DNA of 64,000 bases from Candidatus Cloacimonadales bacterium. GTDB lineage: Bacteria > Cloacimonadota > Cloacimonadia > Cloacimonadales > JAFGVF01. The position numbers and the translations under genes are program-made. Position 1 is the first letter of the stretch. Each line of letters begins with the position of its first letter. Below the pieces are notes generated by a model that was given only the letters and a program-made list of their open reading frames with translations, ran no database searches and had not been told where the DNA came from. The DNA is taken from contig OY759729.1 in the NCBI GenBank assembly GCA_963662585.1, forward strand, positions 1,316,947-1,380,946, in the 5' to 3' direction. This document shows positions 24,818 through 56,325 of the stretch, piece by piece.

Positions 24818-25447
24818 TTAGTTATTAGAAAATATATTCTCAATGACTTTAGGTAACTTAGGGATAATTCTTACTTCTATCCTTCTGTCATTTTGGCTAT
24901 AATAGCTTTCACTATCTTTATTTGAGTCTTTTTTAGGTTTTTCCGATCCGTATGAAGCTTGAACAATATCTACATTCTTTTTTAACTGATCATCTAAATT
25001 AAGTTTTATCTGTTTAACGAAAGATCTTGCCCTATTTAAACCCAATTTGTAATTATCATAACCAAATTCATCTCCAGACCTATCGGTATGCCCTTCAACA
25101 ATTATACAATACTTTTTATATCTATCATTATTTATAAGAAAATCATTCAATGCTTTGGAGAACTTTACCGCAAATGCTATCCCTTCATCATTCAACTCAG
25201 ATTTAGATATACTGAATAAAATAGATTCATTAATAATAATCTTATTCTCCATTTTTACATATTCAATGTTAGGTATATTTTCCAATAAATAACTAATATC
25301 ATTAAACTCTTTTAACTCTTCGTCTTCAAATTGTTTTATTGTAAAAAAAAATATATAAAATAGAACTAAGAAAATAAAAAACAATGAAAGAAAAATATCA
25401 ACAAAAGAAGCCCAATAATTGATATCATTTTCAGATTCGTACATCAT
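24818..25447 (-). CDS. MotB/ZorB-like protein: single TM with conserved Asp plus OmpA-like peptidoglycan-binding domain
   Basis: The TM helix WASFVDIFLSLFFIFLVLF has an embedded Asp as in MotB/ZorB. The OmpA-family motif is IIVEGHTDRSGDEFGYDNYKLGLNRARSFV. The start overlaps the upstream stop (ATGA). Confidence 0.75.
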   Translation of the reverse strand: MMYESENDINYWASFVDIFLSLFFIFLVLFYIFFFTIKQFEDEELKEFNDISYLLENIPNIEYVKMENKIIINESILFSISKSELNDEGIAFAVKFSKALNDFLINNDRYKKYCIIVEGHTDRSGDEFGYDNYKLGLNRARSFVKQIKLNLDDQLKKNVDIVQASYGSEKPKKDSNKDSESYYSQNDRRIEVRIIPKLPKVIENIFSNN

Positions 25448-27018
25448 AATCTCTTTCCGAATAAATGGCCCATAATACCCTTATTTTTGGTTGTATCAGG
25501 ACTACTTACCTTATCTTCTGATGTATGTTTATTGGATACGACATCTCTAATATTCTCTTCTAATTTCACTAATTGGTTAGAAATCTTTTTGTTAAGATTT
25601 TCATAATTTTCTATTAGATGGTTATCATCCCTAGATAATTTTAATAATTTCGTTATTTCGTCAGTATTAACTATATTAACAGATACATTTTCTTGACTTT
25701 TTATAAAACCAAAAAGATCATAAATATTTTTCTCAAATTTCTCTAGGTTCTGAGTTAATTCACTACTGAACTGAATGCTATGGTTACTGTAATCTTCCAT
25801 AATTTTGGTAGTAATTCTTGTAATATCATCAAATGCTATTTTTGCATCAATAGTTCGAATACTTACATCAGATATTTCGTTAAAATATTTCCCTAAATTT
25901 CCAACAAGTTTATCAATATTTTCAACATAATTGGGGATATCCACCATGTTTTCTAAAGATTTTGCTGATTTCACAAATGACTCAAGAGTATTATCTAATT
26001 TTAACATAGAATTTAGTGTTTGATCTGTCCTAGAATGAAATAAATTAGAAGACTGTAAAATATTCTCTATTTCTGGTAAAAGGGAATCTATGGCTGTCAA
26101 GTTGTTATTGCTTACAATATTATTTTTCAGAGCTAAAGAAGAATTTTCATCCATCCCTTGGTTTAACTTATTAAGATCACCAAAAATGGTTGTAAATTCT
26201 TGTTTTTGATTGATTAATATATCTTCATACTTCCTTAAATGCTTATCATTAATTTCAGTAAATGATTTAGTAAAATTTATAATTGTATTATTGATCAATG
26301 ACATTATACTTTCAATTCTATCAATACTCATTGCAGTTGTTTCATATTTACTTTCAATAAACGCTTTATTTTCTTCTCGATAATCTAACAAAAAATTTCC
26401 TAAAGCTACTTCTAAATTTTCGACAGAAGAGATTAATCTATTATCGAATTTAGATATGTAAGTTTTGGGCAAAAACATGGTTGAAAAGATTGTTTCAACA
26501 TCATGGATTCTACGAACAATTTCAGATTTTACTAAGGACCAAATTATACGAATAATTATTGTTGTAAATAGAGCAATAAGCGAAGTTATAAATCCAAACT
26601 TAGCTGAATCAATTAATGATAACATGATTTTCTGAGTTTCATAATCACTACCAAATGAAGAGATTCCAATTATTATTCCCAAAAATGTTCCCAATAAACC
26701 AACAATTGGTAAAATATTGGTTATTAGATTTATTTTCCTATCTGTTTTATTCAAATCATAATATATGAAATTTTTAAATATCTCAATTTTAATCTCACTT
26801 TTATTTTTGATAGAATTATACACATATAATAAATGTGGCTCTTGTCTAATAAAATCTAAATTTAACTTCATAAAGTCAGTAATACTGGAATTACTAAATA
26901 ACTCATTATTACTTTCGATGTCTTCTATTCTTTCCAATTGATGATATATAGATAGTAGCAAAACTGTTAACCCAACGATAACAATTAGAGCTGACACGAT
27001 CATTGCTCCAATAAACAT
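25444..27018 (-). CDS. MotA/ExbB/ZorA-like proton-channel protein with ~350-aa helical C-terminal tail
   Basis: Three TM helices with a MotA_ExbB-type signature (NILPIVGLLGTFLGIIIGI...FGFITSLIALFTTIIIRI). The remaining ~350 aa are low-complexity alpha-helical/coiled-coil sequence. An AAGAGG RBS lies upstream. Confidence 0.7.
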   Translation of the reverse strand: MFIGAMIVSALIVIVGLTVLLLSIYHQLERIEDIESNNELFSNSSITDFMKLNLDFIRQEPHLLYVYNSIKNKSEIKIEIFKNFIYYDLNKTDRKINLITNILPIVGLLGTFLGIIIGISSFGSDYETQKIMLSLIDSAKFGFITSLIALFTTIIIRIIWSLVKSEIVRRIHDVETIFSTMFLPKTYISKFDNRLISSVENLEVALGNFLLDYREENKAFIESKYETTAMSIDRIESIMSLINNTIINFTKSFTEINDKHLRKYEDILINQKQEFTTIFGDLNKLNQGMDENSSLALKNNIVSNNNLTAIDSLLPEIENILQSSNLFHSRTDQTLNSMLKLDNTLESFVKSAKSLENMVDIPNYVENIDKLVGNLGKYFNEISDVSIRTIDAKIAFDDITRITTKIMEDYSNHSIQFSSELTQNLEKFEKNIYDLFGFIKSQENVSVNIVNTDEITKLLKLSRDDNHLIENYENLNKKISNQLVKLEENIRDVVSNKHTSEDKVSSPDTTKNKGIMGHLFGKRL

Positions 27019-27029
27019 ATTTAACCTCT

Positions 27030-27935
27030 TTATTCTAAAATAATTTTACCTTTCTGCTGAATTATGAATGTCCCTTGAGAACTCTTAGTGTATGTAGGGT
27101 TTGAAACAATTTTAAAGTCTTTCTTTTGCACTGTTTCATTATTAATAACTGGATATTCAAAGGCATCACTATACCTTGAAAAAAAACTGTTATAATTATT
27201 GATATTAATTTTCATTTGAATTGTTAGTACATATTCATTGTCTTCAAGTTCTTCTAAAAACATATTTGAGTCAGCAGAATCAGTTTCTAATTCCTTAGAA
27301 AATGTTTTAAAAGTTACCCATATCTTTTCTTTTACAATCTCCGGTATATCATCTTTAGTAACTTCTGGTTTCTTATTACTTTCGGTAGCAGAATATTGAA
27401 CTAGATTATTGTTAGAAAGTTCTTTAGATGAATGATTACTTACACCATCTTTTTTTTTTTGGTTTTCTCCTTGGTTTGTCTCTCTGTTATTAATTCTATT
27501 ATTAATGATTAATTCTTTAGGTCTTTGAGGAACTTCTTTCTCTTTCTCCTCTTCTACATTTGTTTTTATATCATTAGTTTTTAGTTTTACTCTTTCTTCT
27601 AGTAAAGAGATGTCCCTTTTTAGTGTATTTAATTTATAATTTAAGTCATCTTTTTTTGTTTCAAGATGTTCAAATAATGAACGATAATCTCTACGATAAT
27701 CTCTAAATGATAAATTATATTTTATGTCTATAGTATAAATTATAACATCTATCAATACTAATAAAGAAGCAATAATGAATACAAAGATATAAGCATAATA
27801 TTTCTTGAAGCTTATTAAATTCAACTGGTTTAAGGGTTTAAAAAACATAAGAAGAATAGTTACAATAAAAATCACTGTTATTATATAAAAGGTAATTCTC
27901 AATGTTATTATTCTATTAGAATATTTACTTTTCAT
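27030..27935 (-). CDS. Two-TM coiled-coil protein, unknown function
   Basis: Two N-terminal TM helices, a coiled-coil segment (LNYKLNTLKRDISLLEERVKLK), a polar low-complexity linker and a ~100-aa C-terminal domain. The gene is tightly packed in the operon. Confidence 0.6.
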   Translation of the reverse strand: MKSKYSNRIITLRITFYIITVIFIVTILLMFFKPLNQLNLISFKKYYAYIFVFIIASLLVLIDVIIYTIDIKYNLSFRDYRRDYRSLFEHLETKKDDLNYKLNTLKRDISLLEERVKLKTNDIKTNVEEEKEKEVPQRPKELIINNRINNRETNQGENQKKKDGVSNHSSKELSNNNLVQYSATESNKKPEVTKDDIPEIVKEKIWVTFKTFSKELETDSADSNMFLEELEDNEYVLTIQMKININNYNSFFSRYSDAFEYPVINNETVQKKDFKIVSNPTYTKSSQGTFIIQQKGKIILE

Positions 27936-27939
27936 TAGA

Positions 27940-30900
27940 CTACTCCATTAGTAAATGATTTAGTTTTTTGATTAAATCCTGCATTCCGATAATAAAGATA
28001 GAACTAGACAAAGTTTGATATTTTTGATAATTATCAGTCATTGAAGTTCTAATTTTTCCCTCAATTTTCCCCCAATCATCAAATAAATCAAATAATAATT
28101 GATCCATATTCTTTAATTTTTCATCTTTGCTAAATATGTCTTTATACAGCTTACTTTCCTTGACAACATTAAAGAAATAAACATTAAATTTATATAAGTT
28201 TGTCTCTTCTTTGATTAAATTTAACTCAGATAATTTATTATCTTTTTCATTAAATATCTCATCAAATTCTGATATTTCTACAGAACATTCCTTAACGTTT
28301 CCATTAACATAAAGATTTTCATTAATCACAGGTGTATAAACTGAGTTCATGTCAGAGAATTTTTTATCCATATTGCACAATCCATATACAACTTCAGATT
28401 TATTTGAACTTGAAACTATGAAGTCAATATCCTTATCAACTTTTTCATCTGAATGTCTTAGACTGAAATTAATGATAGTTTTGTAAATTTCCAATTCATC
28501 CTCTAGAATTTTATTCTCTACTGGACTTGTCCAAGTAATTGATCTTATTCCATTTCCTGCTAAACAGACATCAATTTTGGTGTAATCATTAACATAATTT
28601 TTCATTTGTGAGCCAATTTCAAAAAATAGAGCACTATAAAAATATAACAATATTAAGCGAGGTCTATTAAATTTATCTTGAGTTGTCATTTTTTTCATAG
28701 ACTGAGTACTGATCTTTGAAACCATGATATTATAAATTGTTTTGAAATCTCCAGAATATGAATTCAATTCATTCTCGTTAACTTTATTGTCATATAGATA
28801 TCTTTCTTTAATTATATCATATAAAGGAGAAATTATTTTCATATTGCTATCTTTATAACCAATAACATTGTTACCTGCCCATAAATGACTAAATAGCATC
28901 AAAATTCCACCATTTTTCCAAATTGAAATATCTGATGATCCCCCTCCAACATCTATTACAATTGAGAGATTTGATGAGTTTTTTTCAATTTTACCAATAT
29001 GATTAAAGTACATTAAGCTTGCTTTACTTTCATCATAAGATTCAATATTCGGGTTGTTTAATATGTTACTCCACATGATATTATAATTTCTAATCTGTTC
29101 ACTAGAGAAGGCTTTCGGATAAGCCCATCTAAATAAAGTACTTTCGAGATTAACACGTTTTTTAATAAGCTCTGCATAAACTAAAAAGAATATAGTTTTG
29201 AGAAATGCTTCAGACCTTACTTGATTTTCATTATTAATATGCCATTTTAAGTTATAATATTCTTCTAGATTTATTCTCAAAATATTTAAATTTTTCACAT
29301 AGGAAATTACAGAGTCACGTATTGGTATCGGATGTTCATTTCTTTTATCTATATAAATCCTAGTATTAAATGGCATATTTACAGAATAATCTTTACTATT
29401 ATCATTTAAAAAAACGTTAGGTAAAAACCAATTAGTTATATTTTTCCAAAAATCTGTAATTATTGGATTTGCTTTTATTTCTTTATCTGTTGGAGATATA
29501 GATGATATAAATTCATGTTTGTTAATATTTATCTCATCAAATAAAGAATTATACTTCAACAATTCACAATTAGTATCATTTTGATGATCATCAATCAATA
29601 TTGCTACATTAGTGTGGGAAGTCCCAAAATCAAAACCAACAATTGCATTGTTTTTACAATTCTCAACATCAGTTAAATTGCTTAAATTCAGTATCAAATA
29701 ATTATAATTTTTGGATGTCTTTTCAATAAGCTTAATATATACTGGAAGTTTTTTTAAAGCCGCTACTTCAATTTGAGTTACATCTTGCTCCCCTGTTTTT
29801 CGAGAAGGATCATAAATTATAGGTGTAAATTTTGAATCATAAAATTCAACATTTAAATCAAATTTATCATTCAAACTCTTAGATACTAGCAAATAATATG
29901 GAAGTCGCCATTGTTTAGAATTTATTTTAGGCCATATAAGTACATTGGGTACAGGAGTTTCTTCATTAACAAATTTCAACAATATATTTTCTTCATTACT
30001 ATTAACACCTTGATGATAATATTTATTAATATTGATAATTCCATTCTTAGTAGGTATATCTAAACTAACTTTAATACCTTTACTACCTGCATCTGAGATA
30101 GACAGATATTTTTCAACATCAGCATAGTCAAAGTAGGTGAAATACAAATCAGTCAGTGGTATTGTATATTTTGATAGAGAGCTTTCTTCCCCTAGAACAA
30201 AATTATTTTTATTGAAATCTACATTGTTTTGAATAATAAACGGAGTAAAAAAATCGTGGAAAGGACTTATCCAAGGATATTTTACTTGTTCACCTGGAAG
30301 AACAAATCTATTCTTATTTTTTAATTCCGATAGTTTATAATTTTTATACCATTTATAACTATCATAAATAACACTATTTACCATATTATGGTCAGGATTT
30401 ATTATCAATGGTAGTATCCTTTGGTCACTTTTACTAGGATTAATTATTAAACCAGAGCTTAAAATACCACCTTTATAGATTCTTAATTTATCAAGCATTC
30501 CTTCTTCATTATTGAAAAGAGGGTCATTTTCATCTGGCAATTTAGAAAAACTAATATTACAATTTTCACAAATACCTTTGTCTTCCAGAAGAGCATTATA
30601 AAGTACCTTATAATCTGGGTTACTCTTTAGTTCAGGCAACAGATAATACATAATATATATTTGAAACCGCTCAGGTCTGTCTTTTAATAAAACAGGTTTT
30701 CTAAAGTACCTCTTTAAGTATCGATTCTCTGTTATTTCCTGTGAAATGAAAAATAAGGAATTGGGACATGTGCCTCCTAAAACAATCTCTCGATTACTTA
30801 GTGTTTTAATTGTTAAAATATTGATTTTCTTTATTTCTGGGCCAAAAGGAAACAGCTCAAAAATCTCTCTAATAATACTATCTTTATTATTTTCAAAAGT

Positions 30901-31200
30901 TACTTCATGTCTAATGATTTCAAATTCAAATCTATCACGGAAAAATAACATTTCTAATAAATCAAGTAAATAGGACATATAAACTATATGTAATGGGTTT
31001 TTATGATCTTCAATAATATTTATAAAATGAATCATTCTTTCCCAGGGAGATGGAACAGAATATCCTTGGCTGGAACTTTCACTACTATTTTGTTCAATCA
31101 TGTTATAAAAATTCTCAAAATCTTTGCTAAAGTCAATCCATTTACCAGGTGCTGGATTAGACATCTGGTTCTTATTCTTAGGTAGTAAGTGCCTTGGCAT
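27940..31200 (-). CDS. 1086-aa protein: unknown N-terminal half fused to an Hsp70/actin-fold (ASKHA) ATPase-like C-terminal half
   Basis: Phosphate-1-like VGFDFGTSHTNVA (aa 521-533), phosphate-2-like VIDVGGGSSDISIW (aa 748-761), adenosine-like DVCLAGNGIRS (aa 877-887) and KSEVVYGLC (aa 934-942) appear in the canonical order. There is no Walker A or DEAD/H box. A strong AAGGAGA RBS lies upstream. Confidence 0.65.
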   Translation of the reverse strand: MPRHLLPKNKNQMSNPAPGKWIDFSKDFENFYNMIEQNSSESSSQGYSVPSPWERMIHFINIIEDHKNPLHIVYMSYLLDLLEMLFFRDRFEFEIIRHEVTFENNKDSIIREIFELFPFGPEIKKINILTIKTLSNREIVLGGTCPNSLFFISQEITENRYLKRYFRKPVLLKDRPERFQIYIMYYLLPELKSNPDYKVLYNALLEDKGICENCNISFSKLPDENDPLFNNEEGMLDKLRIYKGGILSSGLIINPSKSDQRILPLIINPDHNMVNSVIYDSYKWYKNYKLSELKNKNRFVLPGEQVKYPWISPFHDFFTPFIIQNNVDFNKNNFVLGEESSLSKYTIPLTDLYFTYFDYADVEKYLSISDAGSKGIKVSLDIPTKNGIININKYYHQGVNSNEENILLKFVNEETPVPNVLIWPKINSKQWRLPYYLLVSKSLNDKFDLNVEFYDSKFTPIIYDPSRKTGEQDVTQIEVAALKKLPVYIKLIEKTSKNYNYLILNLSNLTDVENCKNNAIVGFDFGTSHTNVAILIDDHQNDTNCELLKYNSLFDEININKHEFISSISPTDKEIKANPIITDFWKNITNWFLPNVFLNDNSKDYSVNMPFNTRIYIDKRNEHPIPIRDSVISYVKNLNILRINLEEYYNLKWHINNENQVRSEAFLKTIFFLVYAELIKKRVNLESTLFRWAYPKAFSSEQIRNYNIMWSNILNNPNIESYDESKASLMYFNHIGKIEKNSSNLSIVIDVGGGSSDISIWKNGGILMLFSHLWAGNNVIGYKDSNMKIISPLYDIIKERYLYDNKVNENELNSYSGDFKTIYNIMVSKISTQSMKKMTTQDKFNRPRLILLYFYSALFFEIGSQMKNYVNDYTKIDVCLAGNGIRSITWTSPVENKILEDELEIYKTIINFSLRHSDEKVDKDIDFIVSSSNKSEVVYGLCNMDKKFSDMNSVYTPVINENLYVNGNVKECSVEISEFDEIFNEKDNKLSELNLIKEETNLYKFNVYFFNVVKESKLYKDIFSKDEKLKNMDQLLFDLFDDWGKIEGKIRTSMTDNYQKYQTLSSSIFIIGMQDLIKKLNHLLME

Positions 31201-31209
31201 CTTGTCTCC

Positions 31210-32580
31210 TTACAAAATATTGTTTAAGTTTTTTATGATTTTATCAATAAAGTCACCCGTAAGATCAATATCATCAAATAATATTTTATCAAAGTATGAA
31301 GAATCTTTCTTTCTGTATTTATCTTTGTTATTAAATAATAATGTAGATAAATTTAGCTCTGAATCAATGATCTTCAAAGCAGGCGCATTATTACTCATTT
31401 GCCAAATCCAGATTTTGAACAATTCCATAAATTCAATTAGTTTTTTAAACTCGTTAGAATTTTCTATAAATGTAGGATAAGTAATATCTAATTTTCTTAA
31501 CCAACCAATTCTATTTATTATTTTCTTGTTTTTGCTAATTAGTAATCCATTCAAATCAATCAAGTAATTGTATATTAATCCCATTTTTTCAAATGGCTCA
31601 TTCTTCTTTTTATGGGGTAGGTCTTCAGACATTAGCGAATAGTCATCAATATTTTCAGTGGGATTACTCGCACCAATTCTCATAAATGATGAATATTTTT
31701 TGTTTTCCCAAAAATTAATAGCTGAATATCCTGCAAGTAATTCTATAAAATGAGAATCATTGATCTGAGTTTTATTACCAATAGAATAATTATCAATTAT
31801 TTTTGTATTTGCAAAATCTTCTCCGATGATATAAACACTGTCAAAATTCTCATACTTCTCTTTATAGTACTGACAGGAAGAAATAGTATTACCAATGAAG
31901 TTAGCAGAATCTGGCAATATTTCATCTTTATCATTAGTATGTAAGTTTTTGTTAAGATGAAAATATGGAAGAATCAGAGATCCGCCAACAGAAGTTTTCG
32001 GCGATTGATTCTTTATCATTCGCGATATAACAGGAAAACCTGAAGCTCCTGTACCTCCAAATACTGAACTAAACAGAAACACTTTATCATCTTCATTTTT
32101 TTTAAGTTTCTGGATTATTAAATCCCATGGAAATAATTTACTATTATTTATAAAGTTTGACATTAACAACGAACCTATCGATGGCCTAGCCCTATAACCA
32201 AAAGTTAGATCTAAATTAAGTTCCTTTTTTGAATATAAAAGGTCTAATAATGCTTGTTCATCTTCGTTTAAACCGTTATAATTTACTATTTTTTTTAGAT
32301 TATTGTTTTCATTATTAATATTAACATGAGGATTTATCCTTTTAATTAAAGATATTGAAGTAAAAAATAATGAACCTTTGCTTGGTTCCTTTAAATGTTG
32401 ACGGATTTCCTGATAATGTTTAGCAAGATCTTCAGCCCTATTTGCATTACCATTCCCAGCATCTGGATCAATAATATATATATCTACTTCACTTGGACCT
32501 AATCCCATAGCACAGAGAAATATAAAAGATTCAAGACATCTTGTTCCTGTCCCACCAACTGCAAAAATATGATAAGTCAC
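31210..32580 (-). CDS. Tubulin/FtsZ-superfamily-like GTPase (Tubulin_2 / FtsZ-like type)
   Basis: An N-terminal Gly loop IFAVGGTGTR (aa 5-14) and a tubulin-signature-like FGGTGASGFPV (aa 174-184) follow a beta-strand (KVFLFSSVF). The GTG start overlaps the upstream TAG stop (TAGTG). Confidence 0.6.
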   Translation of the reverse strand: MTYHIFAVGGTGTRCLESFIFLCAMGLGPSEVDIYIIDPDAGNGNANRAEDLAKHYQEIRQHLKEPSKGSLFFTSISLIKRINPHVNINNENNNLKKIVNYNGLNEDEQALLDLLYSKKELNLDLTFGYRARPSIGSLLMSNFINNSKLFPWDLIIQKLKKNEDDKVFLFSSVFGGTGASGFPVISRMIKNQSPKTSVGGSLILPYFHLNKNLHTNDKDEILPDSANFIGNTISSCQYYKEKYENFDSVYIIGEDFANTKIIDNYSIGNKTQINDSHFIELLAGYSAINFWENKKYSSFMRIGASNPTENIDDYSLMSEDLPHKKKNEPFEKMGLIYNYLIDLNGLLISKNKKIINRIGWLRKLDITYPTFIENSNEFKKLIEFMELFKIWIWQMSNNAPALKIIDSELNLSTLLFNNKDKYRKKDSSYFDKILFDDIDLTGDFIDKIIKNLNNIL

Positions 32581-32999
32581 TAAAAGCTCCTTTTATCGAA
32601 GATTCTTGTTATATATATCTTTTCTTTAAAAACACCTATTTCATTTAAAATCGTTATAATAATAATATAAACTAAAGCATTAACAATAAAGTGATTAATC
32701 ACAAACATAAATATCATTGATGTTATATCTATTGTATCAAGAATAGCTAACTTTTTTATTGAAAGATAGATAGTATATATAGTATTCACACAAATATCAA
32801 TCACAAAAAACAACCAAAAATAATATCTACCTTTTATCCTACTATAAGGAATAAAATAGTAACCAATAATTAAAAAAATTATAGTTCCCAAACCAACTAA
32901 CATTGCCCGATCCATAGTAGTCATCCATGTATTGAGATTATCGGTTCCTAGTTTTGTAAGTTCTCCATATAATAAAAAATATACTATTTTATAAAGCAT
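32580..32999 (-). CDS. Small 4-TM membrane protein, unknown function
   Basis: 139 aa with about four hydrophobic helices. It starts 1 nt after the upstream stop and its own stop overlaps the next start. Confidence 0.55.
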   Translation of the reverse strand: MLYKIVYFLLYGELTKLGTDNLNTWMTTMDRAMLVGLGTIIFLIIGYYFIPYSRIKGRYYFWLFFVIDICVNTIYTIYLSIKKLAILDTIDITSMIFMFVINHFIVNALVYIIIITILNEIGVFKEKIYITRIFDKRSF

Positions 33000-33000
33000 T

Positions 33001-34281
33001 CTATTTCCTTTTATTAATTTTTAAGTAATACTCACTATTGCATAATTGCCCACTAACTAGCATTTTTTCATTAATTGCTTCAATTAATGAACTGATTTTA
33101 TATGTCTTTTCTTTATTTTCTAAAATACTATCATCTTCAGTGTTATTCAGATAAACCCATTTATATTTATCAATACTATCCCGAAAAGTTAATCTACATA
33201 AATACTCTCCAATCGAAGAATCCCCAAAAGGTAACAAAAAAGTTATCTTTTTTCCCTGATTACCAGAAATCACATTCTGAGAATTAAGATTAATCGACCC
33301 ACTATATTTGGAATTTACTGAAACTAATGAATCTGTTATGTTTATTATTTTATAATCAATAACATTTCCTATATCATAAGTAAAGTTTTTCAAAGTTATT
33401 CGTAAAGAATCAGCATTTTCATTCAAATTATACTCAGTCAATGGGATATTTTCAAATTGTTTATTCATATAAAAGGTAGGTGGAAAATTATAGCCATCAA
33501 TATTATCAGAATATTTTAGATTGTTTGTCATTTTCTCACTAAATCTAATTGAAAAATCGAAAATATTTTTTACTTTCTTATTAATGAGATATTCGCTATT
33601 ACTTCTACCTATGAATAACCCATAAATAGGTCTTTTTATTTGTAATACTTTAGGAAGATATTGCTTCTTTGCTTCTGAATAATAGTTTCCTAAAAAATCA
33701 ATTTTTTTCATATAAATATTTAAGAAACCTTTTTTTGCAACCAGATCCGAAAGTTTAGCTGGAAATAATTGAGAATCGATTTCTGAGTATTCAGTTGATA
33801 GGATAAGATCTGTTAAAATTAAGTAGACAGAGTTAAAGTCATCTTTTTCAATAAAATCTATAACTTTTAAAAAATTGGTATATTGGTCATCATATTTCAA
33901 ATGTTTCTCATTGTTTTTATCAGGCTTGATGTAATAAATTGATTCCGCAATATCACCTTCAATTTCTTTAATACTAGATCCAAAAGTATATAATTTAATA
34001 TCTTCATTGCTAAAATTGCTACATATTGAAGAAATTAATCCTACCATACTACTATTACCAGTTGTATATCCTTTCATTGTTGCACTTACATCAATGAAAA
34101 TCTTCATACTCTTTAATGAGTCAGAAGTTGAAGGTTGATAAACTCCGAAATATTCATTTAACACTGATAAATTTTCTTTTTTATCTTCAAATAAATTACT
34201 ATCGTTAATTCCAGTATACTTATTACAACTAATGAGCAATGCCAATAAACATAACATAAAAATGAATGATTTCACAGTCAT
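33001..34281 (-). CDS. vWA-like lipoprotein (start revised to internal ATG)
   Basis: The lipoprotein signal MTVKSFIFMLCLLALLISC starts at the ATG at 34281, preceded by a GGAGA RBS. A candidate promoter lies inside the longer listed ORF. vWA/MIDAS-like motifs occur in order: KIFIDVSATMKG (DxSxT), IKLYTFGSS, YTNFLKVIDFI, VYLILTDL. Confidence 0.55.
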   Translation of the reverse strand: MTVKSFIFMLCLLALLISCNKYTGINDSNLFEDKKENLSVLNEYFGVYQPSTSDSLKSMKIFIDVSATMKGYTTGNSSMVGLISSICSNFSNEDIKLYTFGSSIKEIEGDIAESIYYIKPDKNNEKHLKYDDQYTNFLKVIDFIEKDDFNSVYLILTDLILSTEYSEIDSQLFPAKLSDLVAKKGFLNIYMKKIDFLGNYYSEAKKQYLPKVLQIKRPIYGLFIGRSNSEYLINKKVKNIFDFSIRFSEKMTNNLKYSDNIDGYNFPPTFYMNKQFENIPLTEYNLNENADSLRITLKNFTYDIGNVIDYKIINITDSLVSVNSKYSGSINLNSQNVISGNQGKKITFLLPFGDSSIGEYLCRLTFRDSIDKYKWVYLNNTEDDSILENKEKTYKISSLIEAINEKMLVSGQLCNSEYYLKINKRK

Positions 34282-34309
34282 TATAATCTCCATTTTACTT
34301 AGTATACAA

Positions 34310-34338
34310 ATTAATAAAGGCATATCTTTTTTTGTCAA
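34310..34338 (-). promoter_or_regulatory. Candidate sigma-70 promoter of the seven-gene operon
   Basis: The minus strand reads TTGACA (34338-34333), 17 nt, then ATTAAT (34315-34310), about 25-30 nt upstream of the ATG at 34281. Confidence 0.4.
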
Positions 34339-34450
34339 GAGTTTATTTATTAGTAATAAAAATTTGGCATCATAATTGAATCATAACAATATAACTATCT
34401 ATATTAACAATGAAGATTTATTAACTAAGCTAACATTTAACACAAATCGA

Positions 34451-36556
34451 GTAGGGTGGTGCGTTAGCACCATCCCTCTCACAGAACCGTGCGTACGGGA
34501 CTCGTACACGGCTCCTGATAAACCTTGTAATTATTCATAATAATTAAATAAAACACTTGTAGGTTTCGATAGTAAGTCATATAGCCCTAATTGCTCAAAC
34601 CATTCATTAGGTAAAGCTCTATGAATATGATAACAACCAGAATTCCTCCAATGTGTCATAGATATTTTCGGAAAATCACTTTTATGCCCAACTCTTCTAA
34701 GTTGTTGGTGAAAAGCTTTCCAACTTTTCCATTCCCGCATTTTCTTCATTCTTAGTCGCCGCCTTATCCATGATAATAGAGACTGAAAGACTCCTTTGCA
34801 ATTTGCCACCCTAAAGTAATTCGACCAACCTCTCAATATCGGATTAAGTCTTTTAATCATTGTCTGGACATTAATTCCGCTATTCCGTGGAGTCAGTGAC
34901 CGAATCTTATCTTTGAACGCTTTTACTCTTTTATCCTCTATCTTTACATATGATTCATGTATTTCGAAGCCAAGATACTTGACTCCTTTAAATACACTCG
35001 CAATATGTGTCTTTTCTTCATTTACGATGAGATAAATTGAGTTTAGATATTCTACCGCAATTCGTTGATATTGTTCTGCTTTTTTCTTAGTCTTAGCAAA
35101 AAGTAAAATGTCATCAGCATAGCGTACTATCTCGATTCCTCGACTTTTCATTTCTTGGTCAAAACTATCAAGATATATGTTCATAAGAAGTGGAGAGATT
35201 ACCCCTCCTTGTGGACTTCCTACTTCAGTTTCGCTATACTTCCCTTCTTGCATAACACCAGACTTTAAGATTTTCTCTATCAACTTTAATAATGTTCCGT
35301 CACTTATTTTCCTATTTAATGATTGCATTATGAATTTATGATTTAATGTATCAAAACATTTTGATAAATCCATATCCACTACAAAAGGAAGCTCTTCCTG
35401 AACCATTAATATATGTGCTTTAGCCACTGCCTTTTGACAACTTTTGTTGGGACGGTAGCCATAGCTTTGTGGATGAAAATCAGGTTCAAAAATTGGTTGG
35501 ATGATGTTATTTATTGCCTGCTGTACGATTCTATCTTTTACAGTAGGTATTCCTAATGGCCTCATCTTACCATTTCCTTTAGGTATCTCTACCCGTTTCA
35601 CAGGTGATGGGATATACTTCCCACTTTTCAATTCTAAATGAATCTGCTCTAAGTTCTCTTGTAGAGTCTCACCAAACTTAGATATAGTAATATTATCTAT
35701 ACCTTCTGCACCTCTATTTTTCTTTACCTTTAGGAAAGATTCATAGAGATTACCTTTTGAGTAAACTTTATCAATTAAACTGTACCACTTTTTCATTTAG
35801 TTTCTCCTTTTTCACAATAAACAATGTTTAAATTATACTTTCAAATGACAGTTAATTCAATGAAGACCTTCGAAGTTTTTAGCATAAAGCAATCTATCAA
35901 AGATTTTATAGGTTTTGACTATTATCCTTTTTTTAACTTCATCTACTCAGTCTCGTAAGGTCATGATAGAAAGAAGGTACTCACCACCGTCTATCCGAGC
36001 CTTGAATCTTTCGATTCTCTTCGTTTCCTACTTTTAAGAAAATATCTCTTTAATTATGTTTATTCTTTGGTTTATCTTCATCCCTTCACATGAGATATTT
36101 CCTTTTGAAAAATATCCCCCAATATTACTAAGAATATTGTCCCCTCTGTTTTATCCTCCAGTCTGTCACCAGCTTTCATAGGCAAAGGGTTAGTCACTAC
36201 TACGGAATCATCTGCCACCTGCTTATGCTTAATACAACTCTTGCCTTTCAGCTTGTAGTCATAGTTACTCTATTAGAGACATTAACAGGCTTCCCCAGTT
36301 AAGCTATCCTGCCTGAATGTAAATCCATCTGTTGTAATCCATGTAATCGACTGACTTTTGGGCGTTCTCACTTTTCGAAGAGTTACCCACTACATGAACC
36401 AAAATCAGTTTACTTTCGCTATGTTCCACATTCTTCCTGCGTCTTACTTCAGACCCTGCCGTTGCCAGCAACGCCCTTGACCTCAGATTGACTTCCTGTC
36501 AGTTGGGTGTCAGGACTTCTTTCAGTCCATCGGCTCAGATAACATTCTGGGCAAAC
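34451..36556 (-). mobile_element. Group II intron (full length, ORF in domain IV)
   Basis: On the minus strand, domain V GAGCCGUGUACGAGUCCCGUACGCACGGUUC (AGC triad) and a domain VI-like hairpin ending ...CACCACCCUAC at about 34451 directly follow the RT ORF. The GC-richer structured 5' part runs to about 36556 (GUUUGCCCAGA..., resembling the GUGCGCCCAGA-type 5' end). The 5' boundary is uncertain by about 10 nt. Confidence 0.8.
34531..35796 (-). CDS. Group II intron reverse transcriptase/maturase (no endonuclease domain)
   Basis: RT motifs including YADD (VRYADDILLF), RPLGIPTVKDRIVQQA and a maturase X motif (RGWSNYFR). At 421 aa there is no C-terminal HNH domain. Confidence 0.9.
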   Translation of the reverse strand: MKKWYSLIDKVYSKGNLYESFLKVKKNRGAEGIDNITISKFGETLQENLEQIHLELKSGKYIPSPVKRVEIPKGNGKMRPLGIPTVKDRIVQQAINNIIQPIFEPDFHPQSYGYRPNKSCQKAVAKAHILMVQEELPFVVDMDLSKCFDTLNHKFIMQSLNRKISDGTLLKLIEKILKSGVMQEGKYSETEVGSPQGGVISPLLMNIYLDSFDQEMKSRGIEIVRYADDILLFAKTKKKAEQYQRIAVEYLNSIYLIVNEEKTHIASVFKGVKYLGFEIHESYVKIEDKRVKAFKDKIRSLTPRNSGINVQTMIKRLNPILRGWSNYFRVANCKGVFQSLLSWIRRRLRMKKMREWKSWKAFHQQLRRVGHKSDFPKISMTHWRNSGCYHIHRALPNEWFEQLGLYDLLSKPTSVLFNYYE

Positions 36557-56139: not shown

Positions 56140-56325
56140 ACTTCGCAATCATTACGGACTCATTGGCAGGTTTCCTGACTTGTAGCGAGTAATATTTATA
56201 AGTGCCTTCCCGGGTAATTATCCAGTGACTCTTAATACTCATAATTGCTACTTACAGTGGCGAAGACCGTTCCCGATTCTAACGGGATTCCCTTTTACTC
56301 TTGCACCAGTGAGTTACACATTTTA
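56140..56325 (-). promoter_or_regulatory. Cobalamin (B12) riboswitch
   Basis: The minus strand reads ...GGTGCAAGAGTAAAAGGGAATCCCGTTAGAATCGGGAACGGTCTTCGCCACTGT...AGTCAGGAAACCTGCC. It contains the conserved core and B12-box of the cobalamin riboswitch family and lies in the 5' leader of the ABC/TonB operon. Confidence 0.85.

Follow-up and report, generated by a model that had tools for sequence, protein, structure and literature searches.

A divergent tubulin-like protein encoded beside a predicted actin-fold ATPase and a Zorya-like stator in a Candidatus Cloacimonadales operon

Introduction

Envelope systems centred on FtsZ-like/Tubulin_2 proteins are already known, having been flagged computationally in 2010 and again in 2020. 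Here we describe an operon built around a protein of this divergent fringe in a 64,000-nucleotide stretch of DNA from a Candidatus Cloacimonadales bacterium (assembly GCA_963662585.1, contig OY759729.1, positions 1,316,947 to 1,380,946; hereafter the window, with positions counted from its first letter). The protein, which we call TUB, is encoded by the third of seven tightly packed genes, numbered G1 to G7 around it.

Makarova and Koonin (2010; PMC2875224) defined the FtsZl1 family and proposed that it remodels membranes together with vWA, OmpA and GTPase partners. In Additional file 5 of that paper, vWA genes stand ahead of the FtsZl1 genes (encoding proteins that are all 763–1,208 aa long), and MotA/TolQ/ExbB and OmpA/MotB genes come directly after. 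The Deinococcus order is DR_0540 (478 aa), DR_0539 (109 aa), DR_0538 (FtsZl1, 1,070 aa), DR_0537 (MotA/TolQ/ExbB) and DR_0536 (OmpA); the cyanobacterial order is vWA, FtsZl1, B7 and MotB (e.g. Ava_1847-1850), and a Magnetospirillum operon includes a 1,626-aa DnaK. The T6-H7 elements could not be identified in the FtsZl1 family (PMC2875224). Santana-Molina et al. (2023; PMC9871819) regarded the Tubulin_2 'FtsZ-like' group as uncharacterised and divergent, and left it to one side. Kaur, Burroughs, Iyer and Aravind (2020; PMC7159879) predicted, in Firmicutes and Actinobacteria, conflict systems that centre on GTPases and include tubulin, HSP70 and vWA components, and Zorya anti-phage systems combine a ZorAB stator with ZorC/D, ZorE or ZorF/G (PMC11946911, PMC11890865).

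Tubulin and FtsZ are unmentioned in the Zorya and MotAB-evolution papers examined, and a literature search combining tubulin with Zorya, anti-phage, MotA or vWA found no description of the architecture reported here. What is new is a short-form tubulin-like protein with a previously undescribed, predicted actin-fold partner and a Zorya-type stator. A first-pass annotation of the window had called a polymerising GTPase wired to a MotAB-like stator mechanistically new; with FtsZl1 operons containing MotA and OmpA genes tabulated in 2010 (PMC2875224), and tubulin/HSP70/vWA conflict systems predicted in 2020 (PMC7159879), this was overstated.

Results

Layout of the operon

The seven genes all lie on the minus strand, with intergenic gaps from G1 to G7 of 1, -1, 9, 4, 11 and -4 nt:

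33001..34338, minus strand: G1, the operon's first gene, encoding a 445-aa predicted lipoprotein
32580..32999, minus strand: G2, 139 aa, small integral membrane protein with about four transmembrane segments
31210..32580, minus strand: TUB, 456 aa, GTG start, third of the seven genes in the open reading frame (ORF) call
27940..31200, minus strand: G4, 1086-aa soluble protein with a predicted actin-fold C-terminal half
27030..27935, minus strand: G5, 301 aa, two N-terminal transmembrane helices and a polar C-terminal region
25444..27018, minus strand: G6, 524 aa, predicted ZorA-like stator A subunit of the MotA/ExbB family
24818..25447, minus strand: G7, 209 aa, predicted ZorB-like stator B subunit, OmpA/MotB-like

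The GTG start of TUB had been described as translationally coupled to a four-transmembrane gene, and the junction bears this out: at aaaaggagcttttaGTG the TAG stop of G2 shares its G with the GTG start of TUB, an overlap of one base, AAGGAG stands 8 nt upstream of that start, and G2 has about four hydrophobic segments. The GC content of the cluster (24818-34338) is 25-28%, against 31-37% in the flanking housekeeping-type genes, which suggests horizontal acquisition.

Fold and nucleotide-binding core of TUB

A word-index search with TUB returned 110 homologues; an alignment and an AlphaFold2 model were built on 104 of them. The conserved part of the protein comprises the following features:

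31705..32580, minus strand: conserved nucleotide-binding core, TUB residues 1-292, from DSSP of the model; holds all conserved columns except W391
32539..32556, minus strand: T1-type Gly loop, TUB residues 9-14 (GGTGTR); G9, G10 and G12 99%, T11 95% and R14 90% conserved
32041..32067, minus strand: T4-type signature loop, TUB residues 172-180 (SVFGGTGAS); S172, F174 and G175-A179 invariant in 104 sequences

The first-pass annotation had rested on two Gly loops, HIFAVGGTGTR (residues 4-14) and KVFLFSSVFGGTGASGFPV (residues 166-184), about 165 residues apart and read as the tubulin/FtsZ T1 and T4 loops in the right order. The ORF call confirmed the protein and its loops, and both loops, R14 apart, are invariant or at least 95% conserved in the 104 homologues. 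The family carries a variant T4, S-x-F-G-G-T-G-A-S, which aligns with the GGGTG(T/S)G of CetZ (3zid) and FtsZ. Two further loops complete the canonical order T1, T3, T4, T5: T3 (G128..P133..G136) aligns with FtsZ GAGANPEVG, and T5 (P205-Y206-F207) follows strand S5. T1-T5 are invariant or nearly so throughout the alignment. Other conserved columns are D38 and D40 at the end of S2, and the cluster Q272-x-N274-x-x-H277-x-x-E280 at the start of the helix spanning residues 278-292.

The model (predicted local distance difference test, pLDDT, 90.1; predicted template modelling score, pTM, 0.93) contains six parallel strands, S1-S6 (residues 3-8, 31-37, 75-82, 166-172, 197-203 and 248-252), and the core helix 278-292. 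Foldseek returned 514 matches in the PDB at E<=1e-3, and the best 50 of the 514 were all tubulin or FtsZ (best match E 3e-6, probability 1.0), with about 250-290 columns aligned to FtsZ/tubulin. Template modelling scores (TM-scores) in this search were 0.25-0.43, or 0.35-0.43 on FtsZ length. In a viral structure library, all named matches at E<=1e-3 were tubulin or tubulin-like; phage tubulins came top, and FtsZ-type cell-division proteins and PhuZ matched at weaker E-values.

Sequence profiles gave a more mixed outcome for the proposed relationship to PF00091 and PF13809. TUB residues 158-208 match PF00091 positions 102-152 with E 7.3e-5, at a score (23.6 bits) that lies below the gathering cut-off of 33, and TUB has no match to PF13809 at E<=0.1. 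Among 60 homologues, however, 53 match PF00091 (E<=0.01, best 3.8e-6) and 52 match PF13809 (E<=0.01, best 1.2e-11); precomputed hits to PF13809 are flagged 'faint'. Against PDB sequences the best match of TUB was CetZ 3zid (E 0.19, or 0.04 with the family profile), with CetZ and FtsZ spanning 0.04-0.2. An hhalign comparison with a single, approximate E. coli FtsZ sequence aligned T3-T4 only (E 0.012), too weakly for H7/T7 mapping.

Taken together, TUB is very probably a member of the tubulin/FtsZ superfamily, as first annotated, and it is placed in the divergent 'FtsZ-like/Tubulin_2' fringe with T1-T5 kept. It is predicted to be a cytoplasmic, GTP-binding protein. It is not ftsZ itself, also as first annotated: there is no dcw context and no FtsZ_C domain.

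The C-terminal third of TUB

31213..31704, minus strand: poorly conserved C-terminal domain, TUB residues 293-456, mostly helical in the model

Beyond about residue 290 conservation is lost, W391 being the only near-invariant position. In the model, residues 293-456 are all-helical save for one short strand of four residues (299-302), and no beta-rich activation domain of the FtsZ_C/Tubulin_C type was found there; neither the window TUB nor the 60 homologues match FtsZ_C or Tubulin_C in Pfam. The 104-homologue alignment likewise holds no conserved acidic loop of the T7 kind (NxDxxD/E, acting on the neighbouring subunit). The sole conserved acidic column after T6 is column 289 (D/E in 88%), which lies within a helix. 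In the window TUB this position (31714-31716) holds Asn, and this copy could be hydrolysis-deficient if the Asp at 289 is catalytic.

The T7 catalytic loop and the canonical C-terminal domain, both of which had been named in the first-pass annotation as points for comparison with the model, are missing from TUB, whether they were lost or never present. The annotation's adjective 'polymerising' outruns this picture, and TUB makes a poor candidate for a canonical treadmilling polymer.

Gene linkage and distribution

We called ORFs in 85 loci and ran iterated hidden Markov model searches seeded with the seven window proteins. G4 homologues were found in 84 of the 85 loci, and G1 homologues adjoin the TUB gene in 75. 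In 84 of 86 cases the gene immediately before TUB is a small one of 130-209 aa, and the products of 78 of these 84 have 3-4 transmembrane segments. The lipoprotein G1, the small 3-4-transmembrane G2, TUB and G4 form the conserved four-gene core. ZorA-like genes occur in 40 and ZorB-like genes in 38 of the 85 loci (about 45%), window included, and the identical seven-gene order also occurs in two distant contigs (L001 and L006).

An exhaustive profile search yielded 2,805 TUB cluster representatives at 50% identity, 1,606 of them at E<=1e-30, and a scan of one genome per species at least 575 loci. Nearly all of the representatives measure 455-525 aa, and family members overall about 455-540 aa. 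The closest relatives of the window TUB (40% identity) are in Cloacimonadota; other hosts are Bacteroidota (Hymenobacter, Flavobacteriaceae, Chitinophagaceae, Prevotellaceae), Cyanobacteria, Acidobacteriota, Poribacteria, Ignavibacteria, Bacillota, Pelagibacteraceae and Gracilibacteria. The distribution across these many phyla is patchy, and most copies are chromosomal. A mobilizable 47.5-kb plasmid of the cyanobacterium Gloeothece bears the core genes, its TUB being among the members named 'tubulin-like doman-containing protein' (sic) in RefSeq, and no TUB sequence homologue was found among 50,697 phage records. The system is horizontally mobile.

Gene sets vary between lineages, some subtypes having other genes in place of the stator module. 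Those of cyanobacteria differ again, and there G1 usually lies on the opposite strand and points away from the other operon genes. A stator-less subtype of Chitinophagaceae and Ignavibacteria type (L003, L008, L009, L026 and L064) carries a true HSP70 gene of about 510-526 aa after G4 (in L003, PF00012, E 1e-89), followed in most of these loci by a protein of about 690-700 aa and a smaller gene (SH3_3 in some); an EEP nuclease gene lies further along in L003.

The predicted actin-fold partner G4

28201..29658, minus strand: predicted ASKHA ATPase domain, G4 residues ~515-1000, from invariant columns and MreB alignment

The first-pass annotation missed what the linkage marks as the obligate partner of TUB, the adjoining 1086-aa G4. 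A G4 profile matched MreB (6.5e-6), FtsA (3.4e-5) and actin (7e-5) in the PDB, with HSP70 at only 0.48, and a Pfam scan of 30 members hit FtsA in 18 and MreB_Mbl in 12. The invariant motifs are phosphate-1 D524-F-G-T, phosphate-2 D750-x-G-G-G-x-x-D757 and adenosine G882-N-G. By these profiles and motifs, the C-terminal half of G4 is a predicted actin-fold (FtsA/MreB-like, ASKHA) ATPase. The N-terminal ~500 aa (29700-31200) are also conserved, with invariant W21, P50, P146, P348, Y395, P424 and Y435, and nothing in Pfam, the PDB or PADLOC matches residues 1-500. When G4 was the query, word-index searches returned 2 and 4 homologues, swamped by low-complexity words.

A natural fusion links the two proteins. 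P0229, a protein of 1,534 aa on a 31-kb contig (NCBI source), joins a TUB domain (1-464) to a G4-type region (823-1432; hhalign probability 99.8%, E 7.7e-28), which supports a physical partnership. TUB and G4 probably form a functional complex or partnership.

We rejected an assignment of the system to PADLOC PDC-M61. The PDC-M61B model matched residues 472-568 of the window G4 weakly and in part (E 1e-6) and none of the 29 homologues (1/30), so the system is not PDC-M61; the match probably reflects the shared ASKHA phosphate-1 region rather than membership.

Both genes are interrupted in some genomes (loci L004, L005, L017, L067 and L076). In Formosa, Pedobacter and some metagenome-assembled genomes, two or three ORFs make up G4, and in Hymenobacter sp. 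BRD67 TUB is divided into 329 + 165 aa; genuine gene splits, frameshifts or decay of the copies could account for this. In three cyanobacterial loci (L045, L046 and L072), the first G4 is followed a few genes further downstream by another G4-like paralogue, which is shorter (730-994 aa).

Membrane-associated partners G1, G2 and G5

With Met20 (34281) as the probable true start of G1, the sequence becomes MTVKSFIFMLCLLALLISC, which contains a lipobox Cys; this Cys38 is invariant in 32 homologues, and a signal-like hydrophobic segment is present. G1 also contains the motifs D-x-T-x-S ... T ... TD, in the order of a vWA metal-ion-dependent adhesion site (MIDAS), and it may be vWA-like. G2 is poorly conserved in sequence across loci; its position and transmembrane segments make it a candidate membrane anchor of TUB. 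G5 marks a variable slot, having no sequence homologues in the 85 loci. Of its 67 positional analogues, 21 have no transmembrane segment, 43 have 1-2 and three have 3-5.

The stator genes G6 and G7

25397..25399, minus strand: Asp17 of G7 (WASFVDIFLSLFF), predicted ion-binding residue at the start of the transmembrane helix, read from sequence

A MotAB-like stator had been recognised in the operon from the outset, and profile searches upheld it. G6 matches PF01618 (MotA/ExbB-like) with E 9.5e-5 (22.6 bits vs a cut-off of 22.9) and PADLOC ZorA2 with E 3e-9; its best NCBIfam matches are to ZorA models, though beneath their cut-offs (ZorA_2 22.7 bits, cut-off 100). It carries a helical cytoplasmic tail of about 340 aa, and the tails of its homologues match SMC and other coiled-coil models. 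In NCBIfam, the 29 G6 homologues hit ZorA models (2-9 each) more often than ExbB (2-4) or TolQ (3), and flagellar MotA is absent from the 25 families listed for them.

G7 has one transmembrane helix and a C-terminal OmpA-type peptidoglycan-binding domain (PF00691, E 2.7e-6, above cut-off). It matches PADLOC ZorB1 over its full length (E 1.8e-19), with an NCBIfam ZorB1 score of 16.2 vs a cut-off of 400; its NCBIfam matches also include Pal, TolR-type and OmpA families. An Asp that leads into a hydrophobic stretch is present in 38 of 38 ZorB-like homologues. We take Asp17 to be in the same position class as MotB D32, ExbD D25 and TolR D23. On these profile matches G6 and G7 are a predicted ZorA/ZorB-like stator, closest to that of Zorya. 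ZorC, ZorD, ZorE, ZorF and ZorG have no PADLOC or NCBIfam match among the seven operon proteins.

Accessory genes and defence neighbours

A Pfam scan of 127 genes that continue operons downstream of G4 found nucleases (EEP 5, SNase 3), proteases (trypsin-like 3, aspartyl 3, transglutaminase-like 3), ion channels (3), NADase-associated domains (2) and HSP70 (6). A P-loop GTPase was detected neither in the window operon nor in the 25 most frequent Pfam families listed for these accessory genes. Defence genes lie near several loci: Hachiman HamA with a DEAD helicase and HEPN beside a Pedobacter locus, McrBC beside L003, and BrxL, PglZ, a type I methyltransferase, AbiEii, HmaA and MADS components within a random sample of 131 flank genes.

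Other features of the window

A complete group II intron (34446-36471, minus strand) lies about 100 nt upstream of G1, between G1 and a butyrate-kinase-like gene, and may be the edge of an acquired island:

36304-36471, minus strand: group-II-D1D4-3 (Rfam) match in the intron
35796-34531, minus strand: reverse transcriptase/maturase ORF of the intron (RVT_1 E 3e-44, GIIM E 4e-24)
34446-34516, minus strand: intron domain V/VI (RF00029)

A cobalamin riboswitch at 56148-56325 (minus strand; RF00174, 86.6 bits) is unrelated to the TUB operon. A promoter and terminator scan gave counts equal to the shuffled expectation for this AT-rich DNA.

Discussion

Comparison with described systems

TUB resembles the FtsZl1/PF13809 proteins in its divergent FtsZ/tubulin N-domain, in the inserts between T1 and T4, in having no identifiable T7 or C-terminal activation domain, and in co-existing with the normal cell machinery. 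The operons are alike too: an upstream protein of about 420-480 aa or a vWA protein, sometimes a protein of about 108 aa, then the FtsZ-like protein, MotA/TolQ/ExbB or 'B7', and OmpA/MotB, with G1 in the vWA/DR_0540 slot. FtsZl1, however, is a long single polypeptide with a coiled coil and an alpha-helical C-domain, whereas the TUB family is short and paired with a separate actin-fold protein of about 1,000-1,200 aa, which is not described in PMC2875224.

With the systems of Kaur et al. (PMC7159879) the operon shares a tubulin-superfamily protein, an ATPase of the HSP70/actin superfamily and variable effectors, and NTP-dependent multimeric assembly was proposed there. It differs in several respects. 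Their core consists of TRAFAC GAP1-type GTPases, none of which was detected with TUB, and their tubulin is a fusion with a coiled coil; the ASKHA partner of TUB is FtsA/MreB-like rather than HSP70; the ZorAB-like stator has no counterpart in that paper, where MotA is unmentioned; and their systems are confined to Firmicutes and Actinobacteria, whereas most hosts here belong to Bacteroidota, Cyanobacteria, Acidobacteriota, Poribacteria and Cloacimonadota.

In its stator the operon recalls Zorya: the A subunit belongs to the MotA family and has a long helical tail, and the B subunit combines a transmembrane Asp with an OmpA-type domain. By analogy this suggests the same logic, an envelope-anchored motor signalling to cytoplasmic partners. 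The cytoplasmic partners here, in contrast, are a tubulin-like protein and a predicted actin-like nucleoside triphosphatase (NTPase), the stator is optional, and ZorC-G are absent.

Two further parallels are the FtsZ-FtsA pair, with tubulin-fold and FtsA/MreB-like actin-fold proteins encoded side by side, and Tol-Pal, with a TolQ/TolR-like ion-driven pair and a Pal/OmpA-like peptidoglycan-binding domain. Unlike the divisome, TUB lacks dcw context, FtsZ_C and T7; G4 is three times the size of FtsA, and the genes sit in a low-GC island and have a patchy distribution. TubZ and PhuZ are also divergent prokaryotic tubulin-fold GTPases outside cell division. They keep T7 and polymerise, whereas TUB has no T7, no TubR-like adaptor was noticed alongside it, and it has no phage sequence homologues.

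A proposed membrane-anchored NTPase pair with a possible role in biological conflict

We propose that G2 would hold TUB at the inner membrane, where TUB and G4 would act as an FtsZ/FtsA-like NTPase pair whose nucleotide-dependent assembly would be the output of the system, with G1 as a possible extracytoplasmic contact or sensor. In the subtype found in the window, the peptidoglycan-anchored, ion-driven G6/G7 stator with its long coiled-coil tail would, together with G5, sense or energise envelope events and relay them to TUB-G4.

A service in biological conflict, for example anti-phage defence, is the leading candidate for the role of this system, stopping just short of being probable, and envelope or membrane remodelling may be its mode of action. 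Hints pointing that way are the low GC of the operon, the patchy spread over phyla, the plasmid copy, the changing downstream nucleases and proteases, the defence genes near some loci, and the conflict role predicted for related tubulin/HSP70/vWA systems (PMC7159879). More tentative, and on the unlikely side, is the specific proposal of an anti-phage or anti-plasmid system in which the ion motor or another sensor module detects an envelope breach and triggers co-assembly of the tubulin- and actin-fold proteins at the inner membrane. The pair would then be the immune effector or scaffold, acting for example through membrane sealing or remodelling at the injection site, or through recruitment of a nuclease or protease. 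Such a system would be the first in defence to be built from both bacterial cytoskeletal superfamilies.

Several observations weigh against the proposed system and its role in conflict. The stator is missing from about half of the loci, making it an accessory module rather than part of the core. In Hymenobacter the locus looks syntenic in many species, which vertical inheritance of a housekeeping function would fit equally well. The window's own locus has no recognisable enzymatic effector, nuclease or toxin gene, and is flanked by alaS-like and butyrate-kinase-like genes (recognised from their translations) and the group II intron. The defence neighbours are anecdotal, qualitative evidence without a background control, and many of the sampled flank genes are ordinary. 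At the level of single proteins, an NCBIfam scan of the seven operon proteins gave nothing above any cut-off, the stator hits lying below the curated cut-offs, and no PADLOC model matches TUB, G1, G2 or G5; the vWA assignment of G1 is not significant in PDB-profile, Pfam and hhalign comparisons (TRAP vWA E 0.5-1; hhalign E 0.1 to an integrin I-domain), and a G4 structure model from five sequences was unusable (pLDDT 31). Finally, all members of the TUB family are known from sequence alone.

Alternative explanations

The main rival follows the Makarova-Koonin hypothesis of 2010 (PMC2875224): a housekeeping envelope- or membrane-remodelling machine, a 'mini-divisome/Tol-Pal analogue' that would constrict, vesiculate or reshape the envelope without being immune. 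Under the analogy TUB would stand for FtsZ, G4 for FtsA/MreB, G6 for TolQ, and G7 for TolR plus Pal. All other components being membrane or envelope proteins agrees with such a machine, as do the Hymenobacter synteny, the wide occurrence in cyanobacteria and the lack of a nuclease or toxin gene in the window locus. It sits less easily with a family that is patchy across phyla, plasmid-borne in places and, in the window, part of a low-GC island; with downstream nucleases and proteases that differ between loci and defence genes near several of them; and with a stator that matches ZorA/ZorB ahead of TolQ/TolR. We judge this function possible and somewhat unlikely.

More doubtful is a canonical polymerising GTPase like FtsZ, TubZ or PhuZ, with T7-activated turnover and filaments coupled to, or rotated by, the MotAB-like stator. 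The tubulin/FtsZ fold with its intact nucleotide pocket, the phage tubulins at the head of the viral matches and the stator in the same operon would all suit such a polymer. Yet the family has no conserved T7-like acidic loop, the acidic column 289 falling within a helix and reading Asn in the window; the C-terminal region is mostly helical and unconserved, unlike a beta-rich activation domain; the fold matches reach TM-scores of only 0.25-0.43; half of the family loci have no stator; and T6-H7 is likewise unidentifiable in the related FtsZl1 (PMC2875224).

A TubZ-like DNA segregation system of a plasmid or integrated element is very improbable. Some members are plasmid-borne, TubZ and PhuZ set a precedent for divergent prokaryotic tubulins, and the window copy lies in a low-GC island next to a group II intron, but the constant neighbours are a lipoprotein, transmembrane proteins and an actin-like protein of 1,100 aa, most copies are chromosomal, and none of the 50,697 phage records gave a match. 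No TubR-type small DNA-binding adaptor was noticed beside TUB in the window or related loci; centromere repeats were not searched for.

The last alternative is some other Rossmann-fold enzyme (glycosyltransferase or SIR2-like), with Gly loops that resemble T1 and T4 only fortuitously. This outcome, which the first-pass annotation had said would overturn its reading, has in its favour the sub-threshold sequence scores (23.6 bits vs 33 for PF00091, E 0.04-0.2 for PDB FtsZ/CetZ) and a stray Glyco_transf_34 match in 1 of 60 homologues (E 0.0011), but it is hardly credible and effectively refuted, because the best 50 of 514 PDB fold matches (E<=1e-3) are all tubulin/FtsZ, PF00091 and PF13809 hit 53 and 52 of 60 members, and T3, T4 and T5 are ordered and invariant.

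Significance

The FtsZ-like/Tubulin_2 fringe has been known from sequence since 2010. Within it, the short-form TUB family is large, compact and modular, combining a tubulin-fold and a predicted actin-fold NTPase and often a Zorya-type stator. It raises the questions of whether a tubulin fold that lacks T7 and the C-terminal domain can hydrolyse GTP or assemble at all, whether an FtsZ/FtsA-like pairing has been reused outside cell division, and which targets other than Zor nucleases a ZorAB-type motor might signal to. Should the system turn out to be a housekeeping one, Bacteroidota, Cyanobacteria and other phyla would have a new envelope-remodelling machine; should it turn out to be immune, bacterial immunity would gain a mechanism based on the cytoskeleton.

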